DNA from: an uncultured Holophagales bacterium
Lineage (GTDB): Bacteria > Acidobacteriota > Thermoanaerobaculia > Multivoradales > UBA5704
Assembly (NCBI GenBank): GCA_963842525.1
Contig: CAWJGT010000023.1
Location: 224,001-288,000, forward strand
Length of the DNA: 64,000 bases
Reading direction: 5' to 3'
Positions 34,508 through 64,000 of the stretch are shown here, piece by piece. How positions within the stretch are numbered: position 1 is the first letter of the stretch; every line of letters begins with the position of its first letter. The notes below the pieces were generated by a model. That model ran no database searches, was not told where the DNA came from, and saw only the letters and a list, made by a program, of their open reading frames with translations. The translations under genes were made by a program, and so were the position numbers.

Positions 34508-34722
34508 GAGGGCGTCTGGAAAACTCTGCTGCGGGCGTCGCCTTGGCCCCTCCCCCCCGGCCCCTCTCCCATCCGCACTCACACCCGCCCGGGAGAGGGG
34601 AGCCCCCACCCAGGAGCTTCCTGATCATGCATTTCTCCCCTCTCCCGGGGGAAGGGAGTGCGGATGGGAGAGGGGCCGGGGGTGAGGGACCAGGGCTCGC
34701 GCAGGAATTTCCAGACACGCTC
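34508..34722. mobile_element. MITE-like element: terminal inverted repeats enclosing a family-1 palindromic repeat (34548-34688)
   Basis: GAGGGCGTCTGGAAA at 34508 pairs with TTTCCAGACACGCTC ending 34722; internal CCCCTCTCCCAT...ATGGGAGAGGGGCCGGGGGTGAGGG. Confidence 0.55.
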
Positions 34723-36059: not shown

Positions 36060-36385
36060 TGGTGAACCGGTCGTGATTCGCCGTGAACGGAGACGAGATC
36101 GCCGCGAACGCGGCCGATTCATGATGAACGGGGCTGATTCACGGGAAACGGCTTCGCGGTCACGGCGAATCGGGCCGGTTCACGGCGAATCGGGCCGAGA
36201 TCATGACGAACAGCGGCCGGATCGCCGCGATGAGGGCCGGTTCACCATGAATCGGCCCGCGTTCACGGCAAATCAGAGCCAGTTCACCGTGAATTGGCCC
36301 GCGTTCATGGCAAACTAGAGCCAGTTCACCGTGAATTGGCCCGCGTTCGTGGCAAACTAGAGCCAGTTCACCGTGAATCGGGACC
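36060..36385. repeat. 21/42-bp period tandem repeat
   Basis: 42-bp units at 36276, 36318 and 36360 (GAGCCAGTTCACCGTGAATTGGCCCGCGTTC...), preceded by degenerate TTCAC/GTGAA units. Confidence 0.75.
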
Positions 36386-36511
36386 GGTGCTGTTCGCCCG
36401 CCAAATAATAGCACGCGGCTCCCCTCTCCCGGGCGGCGGGTTGCGGACAAGGAGTAGATTGGCGTATCCTTACGTAACCTAGACGGCCAGGCCTAGTAAG
36501 GGAGAGCATGA

Positions 36512-37056: not shown

Positions 37057-37109
37057 GAGAGGCCCAAAATCAGGCTATGCCGCTTTCAAAGTAGGGGCCC
37101 TTCGCCGAA

Positions 37110-37215
37110 AAAGGCCCCAGAGGGGCCCACGGCGTGTAGCCCGGGGTCAGAGCGACGAAGGAGCGGCGACCCCGGGTAAATAGCCGAAATATTTCCAAGC
37201 CCCAGAGGGGCGGCA
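37110..37215. repeat. Family-2 REP-like element
   Basis: GCCCCAGAGGGGC twice, flanking TAGCCCGGGGTC...GACCCCGGG; same architecture as the inserts at 54480 and 57998. Confidence 0.55.
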
Positions 37216-37243
37216 GCAGATGCGACAGGGCACGGGCAACTCC

Positions 37244-40200
37244 TCACCGCACCAGACTCCACCGTCTCTTGCCCCCTCCTGCCTCCGCCGTGGTCTCAAT
37301 CGCCACACCGACCGCCGCGAGGCTTTCGAGAAGCTTCTCCGCCTGGTCGACCTGAACCCCCTTGAATCGCCGCGGGATCTCATCGGCCGTTGCCTCCCCG
37401 AGCTCGGCCAGGAGGTCGCGCACGGCCACGACGCGGGCAGGCAGATCCTTCGGCCAGGCAAGCTTGGCGGCCTTTTTACCCTTGGCGGCTTTCGCAGGCT
37501 CGGCGGCCTCGAGACCTGCTTCGACGAGAGTGACCTGGGTCGCAGCCTTCGTGCCCTGCGGGTTCTGAAACTCCGGCCGCAGCCAGCGCACGAGGCCGCG
37601 CTTCTCCTCCTCGGCGCGCTCGTGGTTTAGGGCGACCAGGCGCTCGAGGATCTCTTCGTCCGTCAAGGTCCGCGGCCAGCCGTAGGCATCGAAGACGGCC
37701 GCGTCGAGGTCGTCGTGGATCTGTTTCAAAACCGAGACCAGACCCTGCTCGTGGATCTCGCGCTCCTTGTCGGTGAGCGCCTCGCCGCTCCGGAGCTTCT
37801 CTAGCACGTTATACATCCCGGTCATCGTGAGTGTCGGGTGCTGAGTCTGCTGACGCTTACGGTGAGCGTCGAGAGCTTCGCCGAGGGCTCGGATGCGATG
37901 CTTTAGGATATCCGAGCAGGCAGGGAAGGGGAAGCGGTCGAAACAGACACTTTTTGTATATCGAGGATCATTTCCGACCCCCATTCTGCCGCCGGCTGCC
38001 AGACTCCAGAGCACGTGTATCCGACACGAGAGTATACCGAGCATGGCCGCGTCCTCAAGGGCGACCGCGATAAGCATATTGTCTGGAACAACCTCTGAAG
38101 GGAGAAAGACAAAGAATCGATGCTTCGACGTTTCAACGGTGGCAATAAACCGAGGAAGTCCCCTTAGAGCAGATCGAAGTTCTGTATTCTTTCTCCCGAA
38201 GAGCCACCAGTTCTCGCGCCGGTATCTCTCGTTATTGAGCTCTCGTTCGGGCTTTACGCGCTCAACCACCCACTGGAAGACTTCAGGAAAACGCTCTTTC
38301 AGTTGCGCCTGGGTAAGACCGTGTAAATCGATAACGAGTACACCGCGGCTTCGGTTCGTCAGATCCTTGCCGTTCCGGTAAGGGCGAATGTGCTCTTCAA
38401 GCCCCTTGACGCGGCCGAGACCAAGCCGCTTAGCTTCGTCAGGGGAAACGATGAAACCTGCACCATGAAGCTTTACTCCGGGGCTAGCGAGGCTGTCGTT
38501 GGCTTGAAGCGGCGAAGCCGAAGTGACATCCGCACCGATGGTCAGATTGGAATGAATGCGTCCGCGGTGCTCCACAAGGTCAACTTGGGCGTACTCATCA
38601 TTTGCTTGAGTCTCTCCCAAGACCTCAAACAACTGCCCACTGCCTTCGCCGTTCTTGCCCACGGTCATCGCCACCCTCACCGCGGCGCCGTCCTCTGAGT
38701 TGACCCACGGGTGATCTGGAACGGCGAATACGATCGTTCCTCCTTGATCGAGCAAACTTCTCTCCACGACCCGGCGCCCCAGTGACTGCGAGATGCTGTT
38801 GGTCGTGATCAATCCAAACCGACGCGTACCGCCGGAGCAGACCTGTTCGGCTGCTCGGTGCCACCAATAGAGTACGTAGTCACTGGATTGGGGGACTTCC
38901 GGATAAGTCGAGCGCAAGCTCTCAACATAGCCATCGCCAAAGACTTGGCGCATCCTCCAGTTCCCGATGTAAGGCGGGTTTCCAATGATGAAATCCGCCA
39001 CCGGCCACTCTGCTCGGCGTGGATTCTCATACCGATAGACTGGCACGCGAGCTTTCTCATCCGGTATTTCCTCTCCCGTCGCCGGCGAGACCTTCATCGT
39101 CTCGCCATCCCACCGCGTCACCGGCTTGCCCTTCTCGTCGCGCAGCAACTCCTCCCGGTCGTACGCCAGCACTGCATCACGGCATACGATGTTGCCGTAG
39201 TCGCGCAGGACCGGCTGCGGAACGGTCAGAGCGCCGCCGGGTTGACGCACCTGCCATTGCAGATAGCCGATCCACAGAACGAGCTCCGCCATCTCTTTCG
39301 CCCATCGCTTGACCTCGATTCCCAGGAACTGCTCCGGCGTCACGCGGTAGTCCTTCATCTCGAGACCCAGTTGCTTGTAACCGAGTTCCGTCAGAAGCGC
39401 GAGGACCTCGCTCTCCAAGCGCTTGAACAGGTCGAGCGTCACATAGAGGAAGTTCCCCGTGCCGCACGCCGGATCGAGCACCCGTGTTCTGCACAGCATA
39501 TGGTGAAAACTCAGGACGCGCTTCTGCGCCTCCTCGACCTTGCCCAACTCCACGAGCTGCTGCACCTCCGCCCGCACCAGATCCCAATCGCCTCGCAACG
39601 GTTCTTCGATCGTCGGCTTCACCAGCCGCTCCACATACGCCCGCGGCGTGTAGTGCGCTCCGAGCCGGTGGCGCTCCTTGGGATTCAACGCGCGCTCCAG
39701 CAGAGTCCCAAAAATCGACGGGTCCACCTGCGACCAGTCGCTCTTCGCCGCCTTGAGGAGCAGGATGAGTTGCTCCTTCGTGAGCACCGGCGCGTCATGC
39801 GTCGAGAACAAGCCGCCGTTGAAGTGCAGGAGCTTGCCGGTGACGAAGTCCGCTCCCCGATCCATCGCCCGCCAGAGCGAGCTGACACCGCTGGGGAACG
39901 AGGCAGGATTCGGCAGCCACCAGTTTTCGAGCGCGTGCGAGAAAGGCTTGTCTGTCAGGAGCCCGACATCCTCCGCGAACATTGTGAACAGGCATCGCAT
40001 CAGGAACGTCGCCACCCTCTCTGGATCTTGCCCTGCCGCCTCCAGAGCCCGCGCCAGCGCCGCAATCTGTTCGGCGATCTCACGCGTGACGGCAGCCGTC
40101 CGCTTCGATGGGTCGAGCGAGAACGGATCGTTCCAGACCGCACGCAGCAACTCCACATGCTCAGCGAGATCTCGCAGGAAGAAGCGCTTGCGGTGACCAT

Positions 40201-42431: not shown

Positions 42432-42490
42432 CCTCACCCCCTGTCCCCCTCTCCCATCGCCCTCCCACCGACCGGGAGAGGGGGGACGTA
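42432..42490. repeat. Half copy of the family-1 palindromic repeat
   Basis: CCTCACCCCCTGTCCCCCTCTCCCATCGCCCTCCCACCGACCGGGAGAGGGGGGACGTAG, nearly identical to 63878-63936. Confidence 0.8.
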
Positions 42491-42598
42491 GGCGGTGCTC
42501 TGCGGGAGGGCCGGAGGAATCTTTCTGCTAGACTGCGGGTTGTACCCCGTCGCGGGGTAACACCCCACGCTTCTCCAATTCCTGACGAGATCTCCTCG

Positions 42599-45302
<2,704 letters not shown>

Positions 45303-45322
45303 GGTATCGCTCCGCCGCCCAA

Positions 45323-47052
<1,730 letters not shown>

Positions 47053-47087
47053 TAGAAGCCGGCGGGAATGGGCTATCCTGACCGGCC

Positions 47088-48313: not shown

Positions 48314-48630
48314 GGGAGCGGTTCGACTGCTCGCGGTGGATGGAGCTGCTCCAGCAGTGGCGTCGATCGGTCCCGCGGGAGCGGTTCGACTGCTCGCGGT
48401 GGATGGAGTTGCTCCAGCAGTGGCGTCGATCGGTCCCGCGGGAGCGGTTCGACTGCTCGCGGTGGATGGAGCTGCTCCAGCGGTGGCGTCGATCGGTCCC
48501 GCGGGAGCGGTTCGACTGCTCGCGGTGGATGGAGCTGCTCCAGCAGTGGCGTCGATCGGTCCCGCGGGCGCGGTTCGAACTGCTCGCGGTGGATGAAGCT
48601 GCTCACGCGGTGGCGTCTACCGGTCCCGCG
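48314..48630. repeat. 63-bp tandem repeat, five units (last one degenerate)
   Basis: GGGAGCGGTTCGACTGCTCGCGGTGGATGGAGCTGCTCCAGCAGTGGCGTCGATCGGTCCCGC at 48314, 48377, 48440, 48503 and 48566. Confidence 0.92.
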
Positions 48631-48729
48631 GGCCGGCGAGACGCCGGCGCTCCCAGCGGGCGATGGCTCGGCTCACGTGCCGCAGGCGACTGATGCAGCC
48701 CTCGGCGAGACCCGGATAGGCTCTCCGCG

Positions 48730-51791: not shown

Positions 51792-52315
51792 GCGATCTCA
51801 GCTATCCCATTGGCAAAGAGGACGTGAAGCACGAGCTCACCGACGCCGAGCGGCGGGAGGCGATCGAGGTGATTGCCGGCACGCCTGCCCGTTTCCGTTC
51901 CGCCGTCGAGGGCCTCACGGACGAGCAGCTCGACACCCCATACCGGCCCGGTGGCTGGACCGTGCGCCAGCTCGTCCACCACCTGCCGGACAGTCACGTC
52001 AACGCCTACATCCGTTTCAAATTCGCTCTCGCGGAGGACGAGCCGACGATCAAGCCCTACGACCAGGATGTCTGGGCAGCTCTGCCGGATTCACGGACCA
52101 CGCCGGTCGAGGTGTCGTTGACCCTCCTCGACTCCCTCCACCAGCGCTGGGTGGAGGTGCTGCGCGGGATGAAGCCGGAAGATTTCCGGCGCCGGCTGCA
52201 TCATCCCGAACGGGGCATCCTGACGCTCGACGCGATGCTCAATTCGTACGCCTGGCACAGCCGACATCACGTGGCGCACGTCACGGCGCTGCGGGCACGG
52301 ATGGGATGGGGGTAG
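51788..52315 (+). CDS. YfiT/BstA family (DinB superfamily) bacillithiol S-transferase-like protein
   Basis: LSYPIG, LDTPYRPGGWTVRQLVHHLPDSH, PTIKPYDQ..W, YAWHSRHHVAH. Confidence 0.9.
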   Translation: MSDLSYPIGKEDVKHELTDAERREAIEVIAGTPARFRSAVEGLTDEQLDTPYRPGGWTVRQLVHHLPDSHVNAYIRFKFALAEDEPTIKPYDQDVWAALPDSRTTPVEVSLTLLDSLHQRWVEVLRGMKPEDFRRRLHHPERGILTLDAMLNSYAWHSRHHVAHVTALRARMGWG

Positions 52316-55300
52316 CAGTCCGCCCAATCGCCTGAAGGAGACGGTCCGCCAGCACCCGGACGTTCTCCGGGTCCTCGATCGCGGTCACATGGTTGCCCGG
52401 CACGGGCACGATGTCGATCTCTCTAGTCAGGGCTGCCCAGCCATGGGACAGATCGCTGTCAGTCCCGTCCGGTTGCTCCTCGGCAGCGAAGAAGGTGACG
52501 CGGCCTGGATAGGGGGCTGGATGATCGGTACGCGCCACCTCCAAGTGAGCCTTGAACCGGGCGAGAAGACGGCGCGCGTTGTCGGGGGACCAGTCCGGCG
52601 GCAGGTCGCCCCGGCGCTTCGCCTGCTCGACCAGGGCGGCGACCGGATCGGCGGCGCGCCGCAGCTCGTCGCGGTCGGCCGGAAAATCGCCCAGCGCTTC
52701 GATCAGGAGATCGGCATCGCTCGCTCCCGGCCGGCCGGGCGGCTCGACGAGGCCGGTGTCGATCATCCCCAGGAAAGCCACCTCTTCGCCTTCGGCTCGG
52801 AGCTGGCGGGCCATTTCAAAGACGACCCGGCCGCCGAAGGACCAGCCTGCCAGGAGGTAGGGTCCGGCGGGCTGGACGGTCCGCACATGCCGCAGGTACT
52901 CCGCGGCGAGGCCGGCCAGGCTGCGCGAGGTCTCGGCGGGTGCCACGTCCTGGAGCCCCCAGACCGGCTGATCCAGGCCGAGGGCGCGCGCCAGGTCGAA
53001 ATAGGAGAGGACCTGGCCGCCGGCCGGATGGACCAGGAAAAGCGGCGGACGCGCTCCTCCCTCCTGAATGCGCACGAGCGGTGACTCCTCTCCTTCCGTC
53101 GCCTCCCGGCGCAGGAGCCGAGCCAGGTCCTCGACCGTGGGCGCCTGGAAGAGCGTCGCGAGCGGGAGCGTGCGATCCAGATCCTGCGCGATGCGGGCCA
53201 TCAGGCGGACGGCGAGCAGGGAGTGGCCGCCCAGGTCGAAGAAGTTGTCCGTGACTCCGACCGGCGCGGTCTCCAGCACCTCCTCCCAGATGCAGGCGAG
53301 ACGCAGCTCGAGACCGTCCCGAGGTGGCACCCGGAGGGCGGCGCGCTCGACCGTCGGCAGCAGGTCCGGCAGGGCGCGGCGGTCGACCTTGCCGTTGGGG
53401 TTGAGAGGCAGCCGGTCGAGCGGCACGAAGACGGACGGGACCATGTAGGCGGGAAGGCGTTCCCGCAGCCGCTCGCGCAGCTCGTCCAGAGCCGGAGGCT
53501 GGGCCGAATCGAGCACCACGAAGGCCACCACCCGCTTTTCTCCGCTCGGAGCATCGCGCCCCACGACCACCGACTCGCGCACGCCGGGCAGCCGGCCCAG
53601 CTCGGCCTCGATCTCGCCGGGCTCGACGCGATAGCCGCGGATCTTGATCTGCTGGTCGGCGCGACCGGCCGCCGCCACCTCGCCGTCGGGCAGGTAGCGG
53701 CCGAGGTCGCCGGTCAGGTAGACCCGATCGGCCGGATACCCCGTGAATGGATTGGCCACGAACCGCCTCTCGGTCTGCTCGGGGTCGTCCAGATAACCGT
53801 GCGCGAGGTGCGGGCTGCGGATGGCGATCTCGCCGACCTCCCCGATCCCTGCCAGTCCGGCACCGCGTGAGAGGACGAGAAGCTGGACGTCGCGCTTGCC
53901 GCGGCCCAGAGGCAGGATCTGCCGCTCGCGCGCCTCGCCCTCGCCTTCGAGGCACCCCTCCTCCACCAGGTGATAGCTCAGGGCGCGCTGGGATTCCGTG
54001 GCGCCGTAGACGTTCACGCAGACCGCCTGCGGAGCGAGCCGCCGGACACGGGCGACATCGCGCCGGGTCAGGATGTCGCCGGCGAGGACGGCGCAGCGCA
54101 GATCGGGGAGAACCTCACCCTCTCCCTCCGTCAGGAGCTGCGCCATGGCCGGGGTGAGGTGAGTGACGGTGATCCGCTCGTGCCGCATCCAGTCCGCGAG
54201 ATAGCCCGGCTCGCCGATCCGGCCGGGGTCGGGGATGCAGAGGGTCGCGCCGATCGACAGGGAGTAGAAGACATCGCGCTGGAGCGGGTCATGAGCGAGC
54301 CCCGAGAGCAGGGTGAAGCGGTCGGACTGGTGATAGCCCAGGACGTCCTGGTGCCAGGGGATGAAATGCGACATGGACCCGTGCGTCTGGAGGATCCCTT
54401 TCGGGACCCCGGTTGATCCCGAGGTGAAGGCCACGGCGGCGATATCGTGCGGACCGATGTGGGAAGGAAAGGCCGGCCCTCGCCCTGGGTTTACACCCTG
54501 GGCTACCGAATGCCGCCCTCCGGGCTCTTGAGAGCCGAGGATTCCAGAGCCCGGAGGGCGGAACTGGGTAGCCCCGGGTGTCAACCCGGGGCGAGTGATG
54601 GCCAGCCGGAACACCCCCTCGCCAGCCACATACTCCTCCACCACCGCCGGCAACGGCCCGGCCGCCTCGACGTGCAGCACGGCGCGCGGTCGGGCGAGGC
54701 GAAGAATGTCCACGAGGCGGGCCGGCGGGTAGACAGGGTCCAGGATGCCGAAGGCCGCACCGGACCGCAGAATGCCCAGCAGAGCCTGGATCAGCCCCGA
54801 GCTGCGATGAGCATAGACGGCCACCCGGTCCCCCTTGCCGATCCCCTCGGATCGCAAAAGGTCGGCCAGGTGGTCCACCGCCCGATCGAGCTCGCCGTAC
54901 GTCCAATCACCACAGGGCTCGGTGAGGGCGATACGCTCCGGATGGCGCCGCGCCTGCTCTGTAAAGAGGTCGTGGACCGCTCCCACCCAGAGTGGATCGA
55001 GACGCGCCTGCGGATCGGGCAGCACGGTCCGCGCCTCGACAGTCAGCAGCGAGTAGGTGTCGATGGGCGCTTCGGGCCGCTCCGCGATCTGGGCGACCAG
55101 GCAGGCGTACTGGCGCAGCATCTCCTCCATGCGATTCCGGTCGAAGAGGTCCGTGTTGTAGACCAGGTTCAGGATCAGGCCGTCCCCCCGCTCCGCCAGG
55201 TAGAGGGTGAGGTCGAACTTGGCGAGCACGCCGCCGGGTTCGTAGGGCTCGATCTCCAGCCCCGGCAGGTCGAGCCGGGCGGCCGGCGCGTTGAGCATGT

Positions 55301-58300
55301 TGAAAAGGACCTGGAAGAGCGACGGCCGCGACAGGTCGCGCTCCGGGCGCAGCTCCTCTAGAAGCTTTTCGAAGGGGACGTCCTGGTGGGCATAGGCCCC
55401 GAGGGCGGTCTCGCGCACCCGGCGGACCAGCTCCGGGAACGCCGGACGGCCCGAGAGGTCGGCGCGCAGCACCAGGGTGTTGAGGAAGCAGCCGATCAGC
55501 CCTTCGACCTCGGGCTGGGTACGGCCTGCGATGGGCGACCCCACGGCGAGGTCCTCCTGTCCGCTCAGGCGAGACAGCAGGATCTGGAACGCGGCAAGCA
55601 GGACCATGAAGAGCGACGCGCCCTGCGTCTGACCGATCCTCCGGAGGCGATCGACGAGGGCCGGCGGCAGGAGCCGCAGCTCCGAGGCGCCGTGGAAGGT
55701 CTGGACCGGCGGACGCGGCCGGTCGGCTGGGAGATCCAGAACCGGCGGCAGGCCACGCAGGCGCTCGCGCCAGTAGCCCACCTGGGATTCGAGCGCCTCG
55801 CCCGCGAGCCAGCCCCGCTGCCAGCGGGCGAAGTCGGTGTACTGGACCGGCGGCTCGGGCAGGATCTCGCCGCGATAGAGCGCGGCGATCTCGTGCGCCC
55901 AGAGCCCCATGGACCAGCCGTCGCAGGCGATGTGGTGGGTGAGGAAGAGTGCAGCGCTCTCGTTCCCGCCCAGCCGCACGAACAGGGCTCGGACCAGGGG
56001 GCCGCGTTCGAGGTCGAACGGCCGCAGCGCCTCCTCCCCCATCACCCGTCGCGCCTCCTCTTCTCGGACAGTTTCAGGGAGAGCCGCGAGATCGACCGTC
56101 GCCAGAAGGCTCGCAGGCCCGGGCTCGACCACCTGGAGCGGCTGGCCATCCTGGACCGGGAACCGCGTGCGCAGCGTCTCGTGCCGCCGCACGATCTCGC
56201 AGAGCGCCCGGTCGAGGGCCGCCGCGTCCAGGCCGCCGTGCAGCCGGAAGGCCGTCGGCATGTTGTAGGCCGCGCCGTCGATCTCGAGCTGCTGCAGGAA
56301 CCAGATCCGCTCCTGGGAGAAGGAAAGCGGCGCCGGACCGGCTCCTGGATCGCGACGGATCGTTGGCACGACGGCCGCCGCCGGATGGCGCGCCTCCAGC
56401 CAGGCCGCCAGACCCGCCACGGTCGGTGCATCGAAGAGGGCCGTCACGTGCAGCGTCTCGCCAAGGCGCCGCCGCAGACGATTGATGAGCACGGCGCCCT
56501 TGATCGAATCGCCGCCGAGCGCGAAGAAGTTGTCGTCCACGCCGAAGGGGACCCCCAGGGCTTCGCGCCAGAGCTCCGCGATCAACTCTTCGAGCGGCGT
56601 CTGCGGAGCGGTCCTCTCCTCTGTGCCGGCTTCGATGCCGACGAACGGGTCGGGCAGGGCACTGCGGTCGATCTTGCCGCTGGCGGTAAGCGGCAGGGCT
56701 TCCAGCTCCACGAAGATGGTCGGGAAGCATGTAGTCGGGGAGGCGGTGGCGGAGGAAAGTGTGGACCTCACCCCCTAGCCCCCTCTCCCATCGCCCCCCC
56801 ACCGACCGGGAGAGGGGGAACGTAGTGCTTGCAGGTGTGGCGATAGCAGGCGGCAAGCCCTCCAGGTGTTCCCGCAAGGCCGATGCCTGGACCTCGCCGG
56901 AGAGCTGAGCATGCGTCCCCCCTCTCCCGGTGGAAGAGGGGGCGATGGGAGAGGGGGACAGGGGGTGAGGACCCGGCACCACATACGCCACCAGCGCCAG
57001 CCCCCCGCCTCCCTGCGGCCGGGCCACGACCACGCACTGCCGCACGGCAGGGATGCTCGGCCACGACAGCGGTCACCTCTCCGACCTCGATGCGGAAGCC
57101 GCGGATCTTGACCTGATGGTCGCGCCTGCCCAGGAACTCCAGCACGCCATCGGGCAGGAGGCGAGCGAGGTCGCCGGTGCGATAGAGGCGGGCACCGGCC
57201 TCGAACGGGTCCGGCACGAAAGCCTCGGCGGTCCGTGCCGGATCGCCGAGATAGCCGCGGCCCACTCCCGTTCCGCCGATAAAGAGCTCACCGGCTGCAC
57301 CAATCGGCAGCGGACGCAAGGCAGCATCGAGCACGTGCAGCCGGATGTTGGCAAGCGGCCGGCCGATCGGAGTGACCACCGCGGAAGGACCCGGCGGAGT
57401 ACGCTTCAGGTGCTGGCTCACCCGGTCGGTGCACTCGGTCGGGCCGTAGGCATCGACCAGCGGGATGTGGGGATAGATCGCGTGCCAGCCGCGGGCGAGA
57501 TCAGGCGGCAGCGCCTCGCCGGTGGCGATCAGCCAGCGCAGCGCCTCGAGCCGTGGGTACGAATCGACCGCATGAAGCATGGCACCCAGGAGCGACGGCA
57601 CGACCTCCAGGACCGTGATCCGTTCGCGATCGGCCTCCTCCAGCAGGGAGACGGGATCGCGCACGACCTCGGTCCGGACGATCTGCACGCGGCCTCCCAC
57701 GAGCAGGGCCGCCAGGGACTGCCAGATGGAGATATCGAAGATCTGGGGAGCGGTCTGGGCGACCACGTCCTTCCCGGTCAGATCGAGACTGGCGATCCTG
57801 GCCCGCAGGTGGTTGAGCAGGCCGCGGTGGGTCAGCATCGCGCCCTTAGGTACCCCGGTCGAGCCCGACGTGAAGATCACATAGGCCAGGTTGTCCGGCA
57901 GAGGGCGGACGGGCAAGGCGGCGAGAGCCTCGTCGTTGCCAGAAGCCAGGAGTTGGGCGAGATCAATGATCTCGGGAGTCGGATAGGTGGCGGAAAAAGC
58001 CCCCGCAGGGGGCGCAGGCATAAAGCCTGGGGTTTCAACCCCAGGAAGGGAGTCCCCCCGATTTTCCCCAAGCCCCGAAGGGGCGCAGGCAGCTTCTCCA
58101 CCCACTCGGGGTTGGAACCCCGCTCCCGATGCCTCCGCCCCTTCGGGGCTTGGAATCAATATGGGCTGCTGTCCTGGGGTTGAAACCCCAGGCTTTATGC
58201 CGACGCCCCGTTGGGGCTTCCCCACCCGATCCGCCGCTGAGTCGGGTGATGAAGAGACGATCACCCACCGCGCACCGCTCTGCTCCAGGATCTGCTCCCG

Positions 58301-61300
58301 CCGGCGCGGCGGGTGGGCAGGAGCGAGAGGCAGGTAGACGCTACCAGCCTCCAAGATCGCCAGCAGAGCGATCAGATATTCGGGGCTCCGCTCGCCGAGG
58401 ACGCCAACAACCATCTCGGGACCGACACCGCGGGCGATCAGCCGGCGGGCGGCACGTTTGACGCTCTCGCGCCAACTCGGCATAGGTGAGCGTCCGGCCC
58501 TCGCAGGCCACCGCGATTACTCCCGGCGTGAGCTCGGCCTGGCGCGCGAACAGCTCTGGGAAGCAGGCTTCCGACAGCTCGGTGGCCCGATCGTTCCATT
58601 CGATCAGCGCCTGATGGCGCTCGCCTTCCGTCAGCAACGGCAGGTCAGTCAGCGAGCACCCGGGATCAGCCAGGAGCCCGCGCAGCAGCACCTGGAGCTG
58701 GCCGATCAGGCGCTGGACGGTCGCGCCGTCGAACAGGGCCGTGTTGTAGCGCCACTCGCCGGAAAGGCCGTCCTCCCCCGCTTCGAAGTGGAGCACCATG
58801 TCGAATTTCGTGGTCCGGCTCTCGACCTCCGGGATTTCCAGGACCAGGCCGGGCAGGTCGATCCCGGCGGCCTGGTCGCCCGGCATCTCAAGGACCTGGA
58901 AGAGAACCTGGAAGAGCGGCGTATGGGAGAGAGAGCGCTCCGGCCGCAGCTCGGCGACGAGCTTCTCGAACGGCATGTCCTGATGGGCAAAGGCCGAGAG
59001 CGCTGTCTCGCGCACACGTCCGATCAGCTCCAGGCCGCCCATGTCGGCCGATATCGGGACGCGCAGCACCAGGGAGTTGACGAAGAAACCGATCAGTCCC
59101 TCGATCTCGCCGCGATTGCGGTTTGCGCTCGGCACCCCGACCACGATGTCGCCCCCGCCCGTGAGCCGGTGGAGCAACGCGTCGAACGCGGCGAGGAGGG
59201 TCATGAACAGCGTCGAGCCGGCGCGGCGGCCGAAGGCGTGCAGGGCGGCCGTCAGCTCGGCGTGCAGCACCACCGGTCGCGCATCGCCTTCGAAGGACTG
59301 GGCGGCCGGCCTTGGGCGGTCGAGAGGCAGGTCGAGCACCGCAGGGGCGCCGGCCAAGCGCTCGCGCCAGAAGCGGAGGTACTCCTCCAGGACCTCTCCC
59401 CGCAGCCACTCCCGCTGCCAGAGAGCGAAGTCCGCGTACTGGATCGGCAGCTCGGGCAGGGGCGCCAGCTCGCGCGATCCACCTTGCCGGTAGAAGGTGG
59501 CCAGCTCGCGGATCAGGATGCCCATGGACCAGCCGTCCGAGACCACGTGGTGCATGGTCAGAAGCGCCAGATGCTCGGTCCTTGAGAGCCGCAACAGGGC
59601 GGCGCGCAGCAACGGGCCATCGACCAGGTCGAACGGCCGCTCGGCCTCCTCGCAGGCCAGCCGGCCGGCTTCCGTCTCCCTGAGCCCGGCCGGCAGGACT
59701 TCCAGATCGACCTGCGGCAGCGTGCCGGACCGCGGCGGATCGATCACCTGGACGGGATGCCCTTCAACCGTCGGGAACCGGGTGCGCAGACTCTCGTGAC
59801 GGGCCACGACGGCGTCCAGTCTGCGCCCGAGCGCCGCCGCATCGAGGGTCCCGGTCAGCCGGACCACCATCGGCATGTTGTAGGTCGAGGTCCCGGGCTG
59901 GAGCTGTTCCAGGAACCAGAGCCGCTCCTGGGCGAAGGAGAGCGGCAGGTCCGCCGAGTCGTCCCCATCGCGCGGCACGATCGGCGGTGCCTGCCGGGCC
60001 GGATCGGCGCGCAGGAGGCCGCCGATCCGCAGGGCCAGACCGGCGATCGTCGGCGCTTCGAAGAGCCAGCGCAGTGGGATCTCGACGCCGAATACCGAGC
60101 GCACCCGCGAGACCGCCTGGATGGCGAGCAGCGAATGCCCGCCGAGCGCGAAAAAGTCGCTCTCGATCCCCGGGCGCTCGATGCCGAGCACATCGGTCCA
60201 GACCGCCGCGAGCATCTCCTCCACCGGATCGCGCGGCGCCGTGGTCCCCTCCTCCACCCCCTCCGATTCCAGATCCAGCCGCGCCAGAACACCGCGGTCC
60301 GGCTTGCCGTTCGGCGTGAGCGGCATGCTCGGAAGGACCAGGATCGCCGCGGGCAGCATGTACTCGGGGAGGCGCGCCGCGAGCCAGTCCCGTACCCGGG
60401 CGGCCACCCCCTCCCCCGACCCCTCCCCCGCGCGTCCACCATCCCCCACCCCGAGCGGGAGAGGGGCGCCACCACCCAGCCCGCTCTCCTTCCCCCTCTC
60501 CCGTTCGGGGAGGGAGGTCGGGGGACGCACGGGAGAGGGGGCCAGGGGGTGAGGGCTCGGCACCACGTAGGCCACGAGGCCGCGCCCGCCCGGCAGACCC
60601 TCCCGCACACCGACGACCGCCTCCCGGAGGCCCGGACAGCCGGAGAGCGCCGCCTCCACCTCGCCGGGCTCGATGCGGAACCCGCGGACCTTCACCTGGC
60701 GGTCGATCCTTCCCACGAAGCGGAGGTTGCCGTCGGGCAGCCAGAGGACCCGGTCGCCGGTGCGGTAGAGCCGCGCCCCGGGCTCGCCCTGGAGAGTGCC
60801 CGACGGATCAGGCACGAAGCGCTCGGCCGTCACGTCCGGCCGGCCGAGATAGCCGCGCGCCAGGCCGTCGCCGCCGGTCAAGAGCTCCCCAGGGACACCC
60901 GGCGGCACCGGCTGGAACGCCTCGTCCAGGACCTGAACGGTCGTGCCGGGGATCGGCTGGCCGATCGGCACCGGGCTCCCGGGCGGGATCGGCTCGCGGA
61001 TCGTGAACATGGTCGTGTGCGTGGTGTTCTCGGTCGGGCCGTAGCCGTTGATCAGCGTGCACCCCGGCATCTCGGCCAGCATCCGGTTGACCGCTTCGGG
61101 CGCAAGGACATCGCCGCCGGGCAGGGCCTCCGCGAGGTCGCGCAGGATTTCGATCCCGTGCGTCACGATCTGATGGAAAAGCCCCGTGGTCGGCCAGAGG
61201 ATGGTTACGGCGTGCCGCTCCAGCAGCCCGCGCAGCTCCCCCAGAGAGAGGGCTTCGCCCGGTCCCAGGACCAGCCGGCCGCCGTTCAGCAGCATCCCCC

Positions 61301-64000
61301 AGATCTCCGCCGTGGAGCCGTCGAAGGTGATCGGCGAAATCTGGAGCATGGTCGCGTCCGGCGGGAACCGGCCAAGAGTCAGCCGCACGATGCCGCGGTG
61401 CTCGATCGCAACGGCCTTGGGCACGCCGGTCGAGCCGGAGGTGAACATGACGTAGGCGAGGCCCTCACCCCCCTGGCCCCCCTCTCCCAACCGCACTCCC
61501 ACCTCCCGGGAGAGGGGGGAAAAAGCAGGAGAGATCTCGGAGTTGGAGAGAGCCACATCTCCCCTCTCCCGGAGGTTCGGGAGTGCGGATGGGAGAGGGG
61601 CCGGGGGTGAGGGGTCTGGGCCGACCGTGCGCGCTCCTGGGATCTCGAGGCTCTGCGCGCCCTCCGTCACGATGAGCCCGACCCCTGCCTGCGCCACCAT
61701 CTGCGCCAGCCGCTCCTGCGGATCGCCGAGGTCGAGCGGGACGTACGCACCTCCCGCCTCGAGGAGCGCCAGGAACAGGACGATCCGCTCGATCGAGGGT
61801 CCGAGAGCGATGCCCACCGGAGACTCAGGTCCTACGCCCTGGGCACGCAGCCAGTGGGCCACCTGGTTGGCCCGGACGTTCAGCGCGCCGTAGCTCAGGC
61901 AGGCGTCGCCGTCGACCAGGGCGATCCGGTCCGGCTCTTCCACGGCCTGGCGCTCGAAAAGACGGTGGACAGGGATTTCGGTATCCGGGACCGACCCGCC
62001 GTCTCCCCACGCGCCGAGTTGACGCAGCTCGGTCTCGGACAGCAGAGAGGCCTCCTCGTGGAGCACGTCCGGCGCGGAAACCATGGCGGCAAGCGCGCGA
62101 ACGTAGGTGCCGGCCATGGCCTCGGCCTGGCGGGAATCGACCTCCGATTCCTGATAGCTCAGCCGCAAGTCGAGCCGAGTGCCCGACGGATCGAGCTGAA
62201 AGCTCGGACCCAGCGGAAAGTCGGTCTCCTCGTAGCCGTACCAGTCGAGCAGCTCGACGCCCGGGGCCTCCTGAACCGCCTGGTAGACGTGGAAGTGGAC
62301 GAAGTTGAAGACCGTGTCGAAGAGCGGTCCGCCGTCGCGCTCCGCCTGCAACTCGGCCAGCGGAAAGCGCCGGTGCGGCAGCATCTCCCTTTCCGTCTCG
62401 AAGGTCGCGCGGACCAGGCCGGCCCAGCTCTCGGCGCCCAGATGTGCCCGGAACGGCAGGGTGTTGAGGAAGAGCCCCAGTGCCCGGTCGCTCCCCTCGG
62501 TCTCGGGCCGGCCGTTGGCGACCAACCCGGTGATCACCTCGCGGCGGCCCGTCCACCGGGAGAGCACCTTGAGATGGGCCGCGAGCAGGACGCTCTTCAA
62601 GGGGACGCCGACCGCGCGGGAAACTGCCCGCAGACCGTCGAGGGTCTCGCCGGGGATGGCCACGACCACATCGCGCGCCCTGCCGGCGAGCTTCCCTTCC
62701 ACGGGCCAGCGCGGCAGCCGGCTCGGCTCGGCCCCGGCAAGCCGTTCCCGCCAGAAGCCGCGGGTCTCGGACGATGCGAGGGCCATCTGTTCCAGCCGCA
62801 CGAAGTCGCGGAACGCGGCGGGCGGCGGCTCCTCGTTTACGGGCTTCTCGGAGACATAGCCGCGGAACAGCTCGGCGAGGAGCGACGCCGCGCTCCAGCC
62901 GTCGAGCACCGAGTGATGGAAGCTCAGGGTCAGTTGAAAGACGTCCTCGTCCAGCCGGTGGACGTGGAAGCGCACCAGCGGCGGCCGGCTCCAGGAGAAG
63001 CCGCGGTGCCGCTCCGACTCCAGCCAGGCCGCCACGACTTCCGCCCGCTCGCCCTCCGGCAGGCCCCGCAAGTCCTCCAGCTCGAACGGCGCCTCGACCT
63101 CTCCATGGACGAGCTGGATCGGCTCGTCGAACGAATTCAGATCGAACGAGGTCCGCAGCACCGGGTGGCGGGCCAGGGCGCTCTCGACCGCGAGACGCAG
63201 CCGTGCGGCATCGAAGGGAGCGCGCAGGCGGGCGCTGAAGACGTCGTGGTAGACCGCTGTCTCCGGGCTGTACTCGGTGTGGAAGAGCATGCCGGCCTGG
63301 AGGCGGGCTAGGGGGTAGGCGTCGATGATGGAGACCTCACCCCCTGTCCCCCTCTCCCATCTCCCACCCTCCCATCCCCGGGAGAGGGGGGACGTAGTTG
63401 TTGCCTGTGTGGCGAGCTCGCGGAACGGCTCCGAATGCGTTCCCCCTCTCCCGGCGGGGGATGGAAGGGAGATGGGAGAGGGGGCCAGGGGGTGAGGACT
63501 CCCGCCCACCTCCCGCGCCAGCTCCCGCAGCACCGGATGATGAAAGAGCTGCTGAAGGCTCAGCTCGATCCCACGTTCGCGCGCCAGGGCCAGCACCCGC
63601 AGGCTCAGGATCGAGTCGCCGCCCAGGGCGAAGAAGCTGTCCCGCGCCCCCACCCGCTCGACGCCCAGGACTTCCTCCCAGACCTCGGCGAGCGTCTCCT
63701 CCACCAGCGTAGCCGGCGGCTCGAAGCCCTCCGTGGCCACCACCTCGGGCCGGACCTCCAGCCGCGCGAGAGCCCGCCGGTCCAGCTTGCCGTTGGGTGT
63801 GAGCGGCAGCGCGTCGACCTCCACGAAGGCGGCCGGAATCATGTGGTCGGGGAGACGGATGCGGAGGAAAGCCAGAACCTCACCCCCTGTCCCCCTCTCC
63901 CATCGCCCCCCCACCGACCGGGAGAGGGGGGACGTAGTGCTGGCTGGTGTGGCAATAGCGGGCGTCAAGTCCTCGGGGCGTTCCGCGGGAACAACATCCT
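52281..64000 (-). CDS. Non-ribosomal peptide synthetase, 3' part: (A)-T-C-A-T-C-A-T-C-A-T-TE; three apparent frameshifts (~58470, ~57045, ~56725)
   Basis: T motifs GGDSI/GGHSL x4; C motifs HHSVLDGWS, HHVVSDGWS, HHIACDGWS; A motifs FTSGSTG.PK, YGPTE, YRTGD, TPNGKLDR; TE GWSFGG...PGNH. Confidence 0.93.
54480..54594. repeat. Family-2 palindromic insert, in frame in the last A domain
   Basis: CCCTGGGTTTACACCCTGGGCTACC...GGTAGCCCCGGGTGTCAACCCGGGG, translated RPGLTPGATQFRPPGS...SVAQGVNPGR. Confidence 0.8.
56766..56970. repeat. Family-1 palindromic insert, in frame in the A C-terminal subdomain
   Basis: Translated [18 protein letters not shown]...[19 protein letters not shown] between LVAYVVP and FLRHRLPDYM. 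Confidence 0.85.
57998..58218. repeat. Family-2 palindromic insert, in frame in an A domain
   Basis: GGCATAAAGCCTGGGGTTTCAACCCCAGG...CCTGGGGTTGAAACCCCAGGCTTTATGCC, translated GIKPGVSTPG...GVETPGFMP. Confidence 0.85.
60408..60555. repeat. Family-1 palindromic insert, in frame in the A C-terminal subdomain
   Basis: Translated PHPLAPSPVRPPTSLPERERG...GRAGEGSGEG between LVAYVVP and RDWLAARLPEYM. Confidence 0.85.
61462..61613. repeat. Family-1 palindromic insert, in frame just before core motif A3
   Basis: Translated PSPPAPLPSALPNLRERG...SPLSREVGVRLGEGGQGGEG immediately before LAYVMFTSGSTG. Confidence 0.85.
63335..63497. repeat. Family-1 palindromic insert, in frame in the T-C linker
   Basis: Translated [19 protein letters not shown]...[20 protein letters not shown] between ELAREV and DAYPL. 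Confidence 0.85.
63878..64000. repeat. Family-1 palindromic insert, in frame in the A C-terminal subdomain (continues beyond window)
   Basis: Translated [19 protein letters not shown] before LAFLRIRLPDHM. Confidence 0.8.

Follow-up and report, generated by a model that had tools for sequence, protein, structure and literature searches.

Two families of translated palindromic repeats are concentrated in the nonribosomal peptide synthetase and polyketide synthase genes of an uncultured Holophagales bacterium

Why does one gene for a nonribosomal peptide synthetase (NRPS) carry seven palindromic repeats that are read as protein, when the genes around it carry none? The question is raised by a stretch of 64,000 nucleotides from an uncultured Holophagales bacterium (contig CAWJGT010000023.1, positions 224,001 to 288,000), here called the window, which has a G+C content of 68% and belongs to a genome (G000) of 9.95 Mb in 34 contigs. 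One marker protein of this genome has its best named hits, at 61-68% identity, in Thermoanaerobaculia/Acidobacteriota MAGs. The NRPS lies on the minus strand at 52281-64000, with the Pfam domain order ...A-T-C-A-T-C-A-T-C-A-T-TE. A preliminary description, made from the letters of the window, suspected a repeat system concentrated in an assembly-line enzyme, and this is what the genome as a whole bears out. The repeats belong to two families with copies throughout the genome, and within coding sequences (CDS) they are concentrated in NRPS and polyketide synthase (PKS) genes. We consider it probable that they are selfish, non-autonomous palindromes that selection has filtered into the permissive loops of these megasynthases.

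All seven elements of the NRPS were recovered by an inverted-repeat scan, with arm complementarity of 78-96%, and all were placed inside the gene by the nhmmer loci from which their coordinates are taken, as had been described. In a genome of the same genus (G002), the collinear NRPS ortholog is a single open frame of 4620 aa with 57-62% amino acid identity, and each of the seven element sites holds a short unrelated loop and no element. Fragments from a further genome (G001) are likewise much shorter at the 57998 and 56766 sites. The seven empty sites show that the elements are true insertions in this lineage. The preliminary description had proposed that orthologs might reveal both empty sites and target duplications; the former are present throughout, and for 22 young copies of the larger family inspection of the flanks by eye showed no direct target duplication.

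Three of the insertions lie between motifs A2 and A3 of adenylation (A) domains, three between motifs A8 and A9 (from LVAYVV to LPxYMxP), and one in a T-C linker. Five belong to the first family, family A. The element at 63878-64115 (238 nt, extending past the window end) sits in the first A domain, in the A8-A9 interval, where it is flanked by ...LVAYVV and LRIRLPDHMIP, and the T-C linker element at 63334-63498 (165 nt) represents a young subfamily that is 87-95% identical to some 26 further copies. The next A domain (60249-62036) carries two elements, one in the A2-A3 segment at 61463-61613 (151 nt), which ends 2 nt short of the CTC GCC TAC (LAY) codons of motif A3, and a diverged variant of about 148 nt in the A8-A9 interval at 60408-60555. 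The third A domain also carries two: a family A element in the A8-A9 interval (56763-56973, 211 nt) and an element of the second family, family B, in the A2-A3 segment (57998-58222, 225 nt), the latter composed of two inverted arms of about 95 nt with three hairpins per arm. The last A domain holds a second subtype of family B in its A2-A3 segment (54468-54606, 139 nt), tagged by the GTAG-type hairpin GTAGCCC..GGG. An eighth family A element lies just outside the window (window coordinates 65476-65641, C23:289476-289641), at a break in the same NRPS between a C-terminally truncated C-domain open reading frame (ORF) and the start of the long NRPS ORF.

Is this one NRPS exceptional, or is the pattern general? 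Genes were called over the whole genome with our own codon-score caller (6173 genes, 7.67 Mb, 77% coding), and a megasynthase set of 159 genes (1.02 Mb) was assembled by phmmer with C, A, T, TE, and KS seeds. NRPS and PKS genes make up about 10% of the genomic DNA, with more than 111 C-domain and about 45 KS matches. Family A comprises 527 loci and family B 120 merged loci. Among the related genomes searched, family A is present in all 5 of the same genus and in 11 of 18 of the same family. Most copies lie between ORFs (301 of family A and 90 of family B, or 391 per 2.28 Mb, ~171 per Mb) and others at ORF edges (117 and 11). Inside genes, 54 family A and 12 family B copies are found in megasynthases (65 per Mb), and 55 and 7, respectively, in other ORFs (9 per Mb). 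Per unit length, NRPS/PKS sequence (66 copies in 1.02 Mb) thus holds about seven times as many copies as the remaining coding sequence (62 in 6.65 Mb; binomial p = 6e-25); one of the 66 is counted twice through a pair of contig ends (C18:37201-47695 and C19:523703-534190) that are 98.4% identical over 10.5 kb and reflect either assembly redundancy or a strain variant. A count blind to the two families, taking CDS segments with at least 10 matches among intergenic pieces of up to 500 nt, returned 64 megasynthase and 63 other segments, a ratio of 6.6, and 63 of the 64 megasynthase segments overlap family A or B loci.

The preliminary description had also stated that no other CDS of the window contains such an insert. 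Every other well-supported CDS in the window is indeed without a copy; the statement does not extend to the genome, where 62 copies lie inside non-megasynthase ORFs, 41 of them with coding signal on both flanks. Ten of ten sampled non-NRPS hosts have normal Pfam architectures, and the hosts include a Ser/Thr kinase, an AcrB-type pump, ABC transporters, a UvrD-like helicase, a HisF-HisIE fusion, and a CHAT-TPR protein.

Within megasynthases, the copies are not scattered evenly. The A2-A3 segment alone holds 30 of the 66 (22 of family A and 8 of family B), and roughly every eighth A domain has a repeat in one of its loops. Regular-expression sorting left 31 of the 36 other inserts unassigned to a class; by eye, many of them lie in KS-AT, post-AT, T-C, and C-A linkers or in A4-A5 or A5-A6 loops, and A4-A5 copies occur in two paralogous modules. 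On a FastTree phylogeny of 222 A-domain cores, the 30 element-bearing tips require 24 changes (shuffled mean 28.6, minimum 25); most insertions thus arose independently rather than being copied along with duplicated modules.

The elements at A2-A3 also often take the place of native sequence. In element-free domains, the A2-A3 distance has a median of 72 aa (interquartile range 69-74, n=157); of 29 domains with an element, 21 keep no more than 14-59 aa of native sequence. Element and remainder together are often near the native length, at 72-83 aa (75, 78, 83, 72, 77, 74, and 77), so the element-encoded peptide frequently stands in for native loop residues. AlphaFold2 models, computed with an alignment of 17 paralogs and the G002 ortholog, gave a mean pLDDT of 79.6 for the window A domain with two elements, which appear as structure-free segments at residues 141-186 (element 61463-61613) and 500-535 (element 60408-60555) with pLDDT below 50. 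In a model of a replacement case, whose mean pLDDT is 82.4, no long stretch other than the element (about 101-145) is of low confidence; across residues 101-150, the means of 10-residue blocks are 40-75. The elements are thus predicted to form low-confidence coils on an intact A-domain fold, a weak test since the paralog alignment largely dictates that fold.

How could such a distribution arise? We propose that family A and B copies land all over the genome and that, in coding DNA, selection would purge those that add stops, break the frame, or strike structured parts of the protein. The survivors would be copies that keep the frame and add no stop, and they would be translated into Pro/Gly-rich coils, located in surface loops and linkers and presumably retained in the mature protein. 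Each module would offer several tolerant places, namely the A2-A3, A4-A5, and A8-A9 intervals and the inter-domain linkers, and the genes themselves would be dispensable and probably rarely expressed; the 7-fold excess is proposed to follow from this combination. After insertion, deletions may trim both the element and the adjoining native loop, and the element would come to replace native residues. Tolerated passengers, one of the roles considered in the preliminary description, are the reading best supported by these data.

The state of the coding copies bears directly on the proposed filter. Among intergenic copies, length is divisible by three in 51 of 173 for family A and in 28 of 72 for family B, and 43% and 33% of their respective six-frame readings are stop-free, compared with 57% of random 150-nt genome windows. 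From these figures, about one random landing in eight would keep an ORF open. At A2-A3, 34 copies are in frame and 2 contain stops (the 34 being 30 called inside genes and 4 outside the caller's inside class that are open in the A3 frame), and only 9 copies adjoin called megasynthase genes, compared with 66 inside them. This excess indicates purifying selection on the host genes, which runs counter to simple spread in dead genes. Two signatures of random spread in decaying genes had been named in advance, an equal density in ordinary genes and a mixture of in-frame and frame-breaking inserts; the 7-fold excess and the ratio of 34 to 2 match neither.

Such decay deserves consideration all the same, since the window NRPS is not assembled as one frame. 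The preliminary description had all seven elements read in frame as Pro/Gly-rich peptides. The peptides are as described. The gene, however, consists of three ORFs as assembled (58341-63998, continuing to 65393; 56768-58483; and 52281-56771), and its reading frame shifts by +1 at three places, near 58465, 57045, and 56715. The 56763-56973 element is locally in frame (...LVAYVVPG-[element]-HTFLRHRLPDYMLP), and the stretch that holds it is a third frame bracketed by the changes at about 57045 and 56715. If the NRPS clusters were pseudogenes, or poorly assembled, repeats could have accumulated in them without opposing selection; these frame changes, the two A2-A3 elements with stops, and the eighth element at the NRPS break just upstream of the window would all fit. 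Yet the frame changes, as read by eye from the DNA, all lie outside the elements, and in-frame and inside copies are far more frequent than the one in eight expected by chance. Elsewhere in the genome, open NRPS frames reach 10975 aa. Moreover, secA, present in a sole canonical copy about 10 kb from the NRPS (window 42599-45739), is split over at least three frames and IMPDH (45480-47081) over two, and rpoB and the class I aminoacyl-tRNA synthetases are intact in the genome. The split genes reflect either local assembly indels on this contig or real breaks in essential genes; taken with the intact genes and the long NRPS frames elsewhere, they lead us to suspect the former, and the NRPS frame changes may be local assembly errors rather than decay. 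Reads offered no further guidance: in one soil-metagenome run (0.07 word share), the contigs were short and of low depth, none informatively bridged a frameshift site or an element junction, and the joints obtained, with sides of 20-25 nt at 90% likeness, are not interpretable. On balance, we regard random spread in decaying genes as improbable. A second SecA-like gene, at C21:95590, is a short form of 626 aa.

Several observations nonetheless weigh against the explanation by tolerance and selection, in addition to the weakness of the structural test. As many as 44 of the 159 megasynthase ORF pieces start or stop in mid-domain, as would also be expected under decay, and some of the clusters may be decaying or mis-assembled. 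Of the 62 hits in other CDS, as defined by our own gene caller, 21 do not have coding signal on both flanks. The density at A2-A3 is about 600-700 per Mb (34 copies in about 49 kb) and exceeds that of intergenic DNA (391-519 per 2.28 Mb); given that only about one landing in eight is compatible with an ORF, tolerance alone is not an easy explanation. The junction of element end and motif A3 recurs at identical spacing in many A domains of several genomes. Finally, intragenic copies are as well preserved as intergenic ones, with predicted hairpins of -0.82 versus -0.78 kcal/mol per nt and model scores that do not differ (p = 0.6), which runs counter to slow neutral decay inside proteins. For the density, the spacing, and the intactness, targeting, healing of disruptive copies through subsequent deletions, and longer persistence in ORFs are all candidate explanations.

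Could the hot spot, then, be a landing preference, with the repeats or the enzyme that mobilizes them favoring a DNA feature at the A2-A3 boundary? The density above intergenic DNA, reached despite the ORF filter, raises the question of whether HUH-type or other machinery targets specific coding sequences. The pattern GGGGTGAGG-NN-CTC-GCC-TAC, in which the element end lies 2 nt from the A3 codons, was found in the source genome and six others (G000 18 hits, G003 13, G010 5, G004 2, G032 2, G006 1, and G018 1), and the reversed control gave 0 hits in all 21 genomes. The 61463 copy in the window has this spacing although the orthologous site in G002 is empty, paralogous modules that share 87% identity hold distinct family A variants in the same position, and both families occupy the segment. 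Against such targeting, the family A flanks (576 intergenic, 158 CDS) hold no information beyond GGGGTGAGG and four semi-conserved bases, and CGTC/GACG and related words are not enriched beside intergenic ends (80 near versus 93 in the control; 47 versus 89). The offsets of the elements from motif A3 are spread over 4 to 32 residues. If the dispensable loop were eroded as far as the essential LAY strand, junctions would likewise accumulate at that boundary, and such erosion fits the shortened native remainder. Targeted insertion as such is, in our estimation, rather unlikely.

A broader possibility, which we advance tentatively and still hold to be on the unlikely side, is that copies actively land at the A2-A3 boundary in several genera of one Acidobacteriota family, or that disruptive copies are routinely healed there into in-frame linkers. 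If so, mobile hairpin DNA would continually rewrite a defined NRPS loop and replace its native residues, a natural form of repeat-driven insertion and replacement at sites that engineers use for domain insertion.

The inserts might instead be kept in megasynthase genes for a function, either as RNA or DNA hairpins that act in pausing, decay, or co-translational folding or as recombination anchors. The predicted intragenic hairpins, at roughly -0.8 kcal/mol per nt (about -120 per 150-nt copy), are at least as stable as the intergenic ones, and the combined length of element and remainder is often close to the native 72 aa. However, the NRPS would work without the elements, as all seven sites are empty in the ortholog, and the same elements occur in unrelated ordinary genes and mostly between genes. 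The suggestion that they are homology points for module shuffling found no support, since mosaic breakpoints across A2-A3 are not in excess (3 of 25 element-bearing versus 20 of 137 element-free cases, Fisher p = 1.0). We hold functional recruitment to be improbable.

Removal after transcription or translation had been suggested as well. The Pfam domains are C, A, T, and TE, with neither an intein nor a Hint domain among them, Rfam gives no intron (E <= 0.1), and the junction residues vary; an intein or self-splicing intron was rejected on these grounds.

What kind of repeats are these? Family A is built as an inverted dimer with arms of about 60 nt, each hairpin of about 45 nt having a stem of 10-11 bp and a median loop of 19 nt. 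Its ends show an inner CGT(C/T) tag, an outer (A/C)C(A/G) tail, and the terminus GGGGGTGAGG, and the arm regular expression matches 497 of the 527 loci. Inner tags of the form xCGT or CGTT occur in 297 of 1466 arm readings over both strands, set against the verbal description of CGTC-tagged repetitive extragenic palindromic sequences (REPs) only; the outer tails are ACA (230), CCA (194), and CCG (171), in a scheme likewise compared by verbal description only. The dimers, at 120-240 nt, exceed the 20-40 bp palindromes of the CGTC-tagged REPs. By these features, the hairpins of family A appear to resemble CGTC-tagged REPs of greater length. In a search confined to Y1 (PF01797) genes, none of the 19 matches had a family A locus within 1.5-2.5 kb, and no recurrent arm pair enclosing a gene was seen in the genome. 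A classical miniature inverted-repeat transposable element was considered and rejected; terminal inverted repeats are present, but the flanks of the young copies showed no target-site duplication by eye.

Family B, in contrast, has a candidate source. The preliminary description had recommended a search for HUH transposases flanked by the repeats, and such genes were found for this one of the two families. Each of the eight intact Y1 (PF01797) genes lies between inverted repeats that have 20-70 BLAST copies. From end to end, the two arms of the 57998 element align with the upstream and downstream flanks of the Y1 genes at C3:199401 and C9:225386, the subtype of the 54468 element also flanks the Y1 gene at C14:204236, and the family B models match the flanks of four of nine Y1 genes. 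Both window elements of the family are inverted-arm doublets. By the full-length alignment of the arms with the Y1 flanks, family B joins the hairpin modules from the two ends of IS200/IS605-type (RAYT-like) Y1 units and lacks the gene between them, a REPIN or terminal inverted repeat (TIR) arrangement. All three Y1 proteins scanned score above the NCBIfam NF033573 IS200/IS605 cut-off of 55 (68-77 bits). The clade of REP-associated tyrosine transposases (RAYTs; NF047646 REP_Tyr_transpos) was not reached, with 27.3 and 24.6 bits against a cut-off of 80 and no hit for the third protein. Three near-identical Y1 units within 4 kb (C34:527792-531498), each with its own flanking repeats of about 47 copies, are unlike RAYTs, which usually occur in single copy.

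The outer two hairpins of the family B arms match the Rfam model RF01687 (Acido-Lenti-1), with 38.8 bits at 58173-58218 (gathering score 37) and, below threshold, 31.8-33.1 bits at the other three family B arms of the window (57998-58045, 54483-54526, and 54548-54591). This motif was listed as a probable non-coding RNA (Weinberg et al. 2010), with Acidobacteria among its taxa (PMC2864571). Here, by contrast, the matches are the ends of Y1-associated repeats, some of them inside an NRPS ORF, and the motif may represent the terminal hairpins of a transposase-associated repeat rather than a free-standing small RNA.

Some family B copies are nested in, or abut remnants of, family A (C4:114009-117212 and C25:156341-159259), and the same arrangement is seen at A2-A3 sites (C9:1016892-1021958, C9:1400977-1410417, and C9:1316870-1326982). 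The palindromes themselves may thus be landing sites for further copies.

Translated palindromes of this kind are known. Intragenic in-frame REPs, including Rickettsia palindromic elements (RPEs), have been described (Di Nocera et al. 2013; PMC3733652), so that the precedent cited in the preliminary description is apt. As far as the sections of that paper at hand show, those repeats and ours are alike high-copy palindromes, often inverted dimers, mostly intergenic, with a minority in frame. The likeness to RPEs is one of arrangement, in that in-frame palindromes lie in open genes (here 66 megasynthase and 41-62 other-ORF copies). UvrD-type helicases are among the intragenic-REP hosts, as a UvrD-like helicase is here, and CGTC REPs are described in the same sections as having no dedicated transposase, just as none was found for family A in a search that covered Y1 genes only. 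The present repeats differ from the CGTC/GTAG REPs in being longer, with stems of 10-11 bp, loops of about 19 nt, and dimers of 140-240 nt that encode 45-80 aa, and they differ from intragenic REPs in their host, an Acidobacteriota-like soil bacterium. What is new is their concentration in NRPS/PKS genes, the hot spots at A2-A3 and A8-A9, and the frequent replacement of native loops. Full-text literature searches returned no report of translated palindromic repeats as a systematic feature of assembly lines; the supplement on intragenic REPs of PMC3733652, outside the scope of these searches, might hold NRPS cases.

For family B, the closest counterparts are the REPIN-RAYT system (Bertels and Rainey 2011) and the TIR-repeat/TIRYT systems, including that of Koribacter versatilis (PMC3733652, in the sections at hand). 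In each, as here, units flank single Y1 (HUH) genes in inverted orientation and occur as dozens of gene-less inverted doublets. However, family B transposases score as IS200/IS605 and below the RAYT equivalog cut-off, and the arms of about 95 nt carry three hairpins, whereas REPs are single and of 20-40 nt in these sources. REPINs are described as extragenic, and 19 of the 120 family B loci lie inside called ORFs, 12 of these in megasynthase genes; the family is thus not purely extragenic.

The insertion sites recall natural interrupted A domains, which carry inserts at A8-A9, A2-A3, and A4-A5 (PMC8097286, citing Labby et al. 2015; PMC11355689, both in the portions at hand). In both cases a foreign segment is placed in one of these intervals and the A-domain fold is kept. 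In the natural examples of these sources, the inserts are folded catalytic domains with a function (methyltransferase, KR, or Ox), whereas here the insert is a Pro/Gly-rich peptide of 20-80 aa encoded by a mobile palindrome, with no Pfam domain and predicted to be coil. The repeats give a natural map of insertion-tolerant sites (A2-A3, A8-A9, A4-A5, and linkers) that agrees with engineering experience on interrupted A domains. Split A-domain hits are to be expected from domain-prediction pipelines in such genomes.

The remaining copies in the window lie outside well-supported genes. The same families had been placed between genes at four positions, and three of these family A copies are in fact between genes or at a gene end: an intergenic copy at 34549-34687, a single intergenic arm at 42432-42508 upstream of secA, and a copy at 46820-46979 at or beyond the IMPDH 3' end, where the ORF running through it has a negative coding score on both flanks. 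The fourth, intergenic at 37100-37225, is a REP-like copy of a further family-B-type subtype, which the two family B models did not match and which gave 26 hits as a BLAST seed.

Other repeats were also noted. A unit of about 63 nt containing CAGCGTGAGCTCACGCTGG is repeated at C32:133126-133426, upstream of the Y1 gene at C32:133626, with 142-228 BLAST hits genome-wide, and is unrelated to families A and B. Clusters of short inverted and direct repeats at window 36061-36388 and 48359-48651, of the GGTGAACCGGTCGTGATTCGCCGTGAACG and GGCGTCGATCGGTCCCGCGGGAGCGGT types, likewise belong to neither family. Lastly, a gene for an MmeI-like type IIG restriction-modification enzyme (window 37244-40156) lies in a dip to 59-61% GC (genome 68%), and the region may be a horizontally acquired island.

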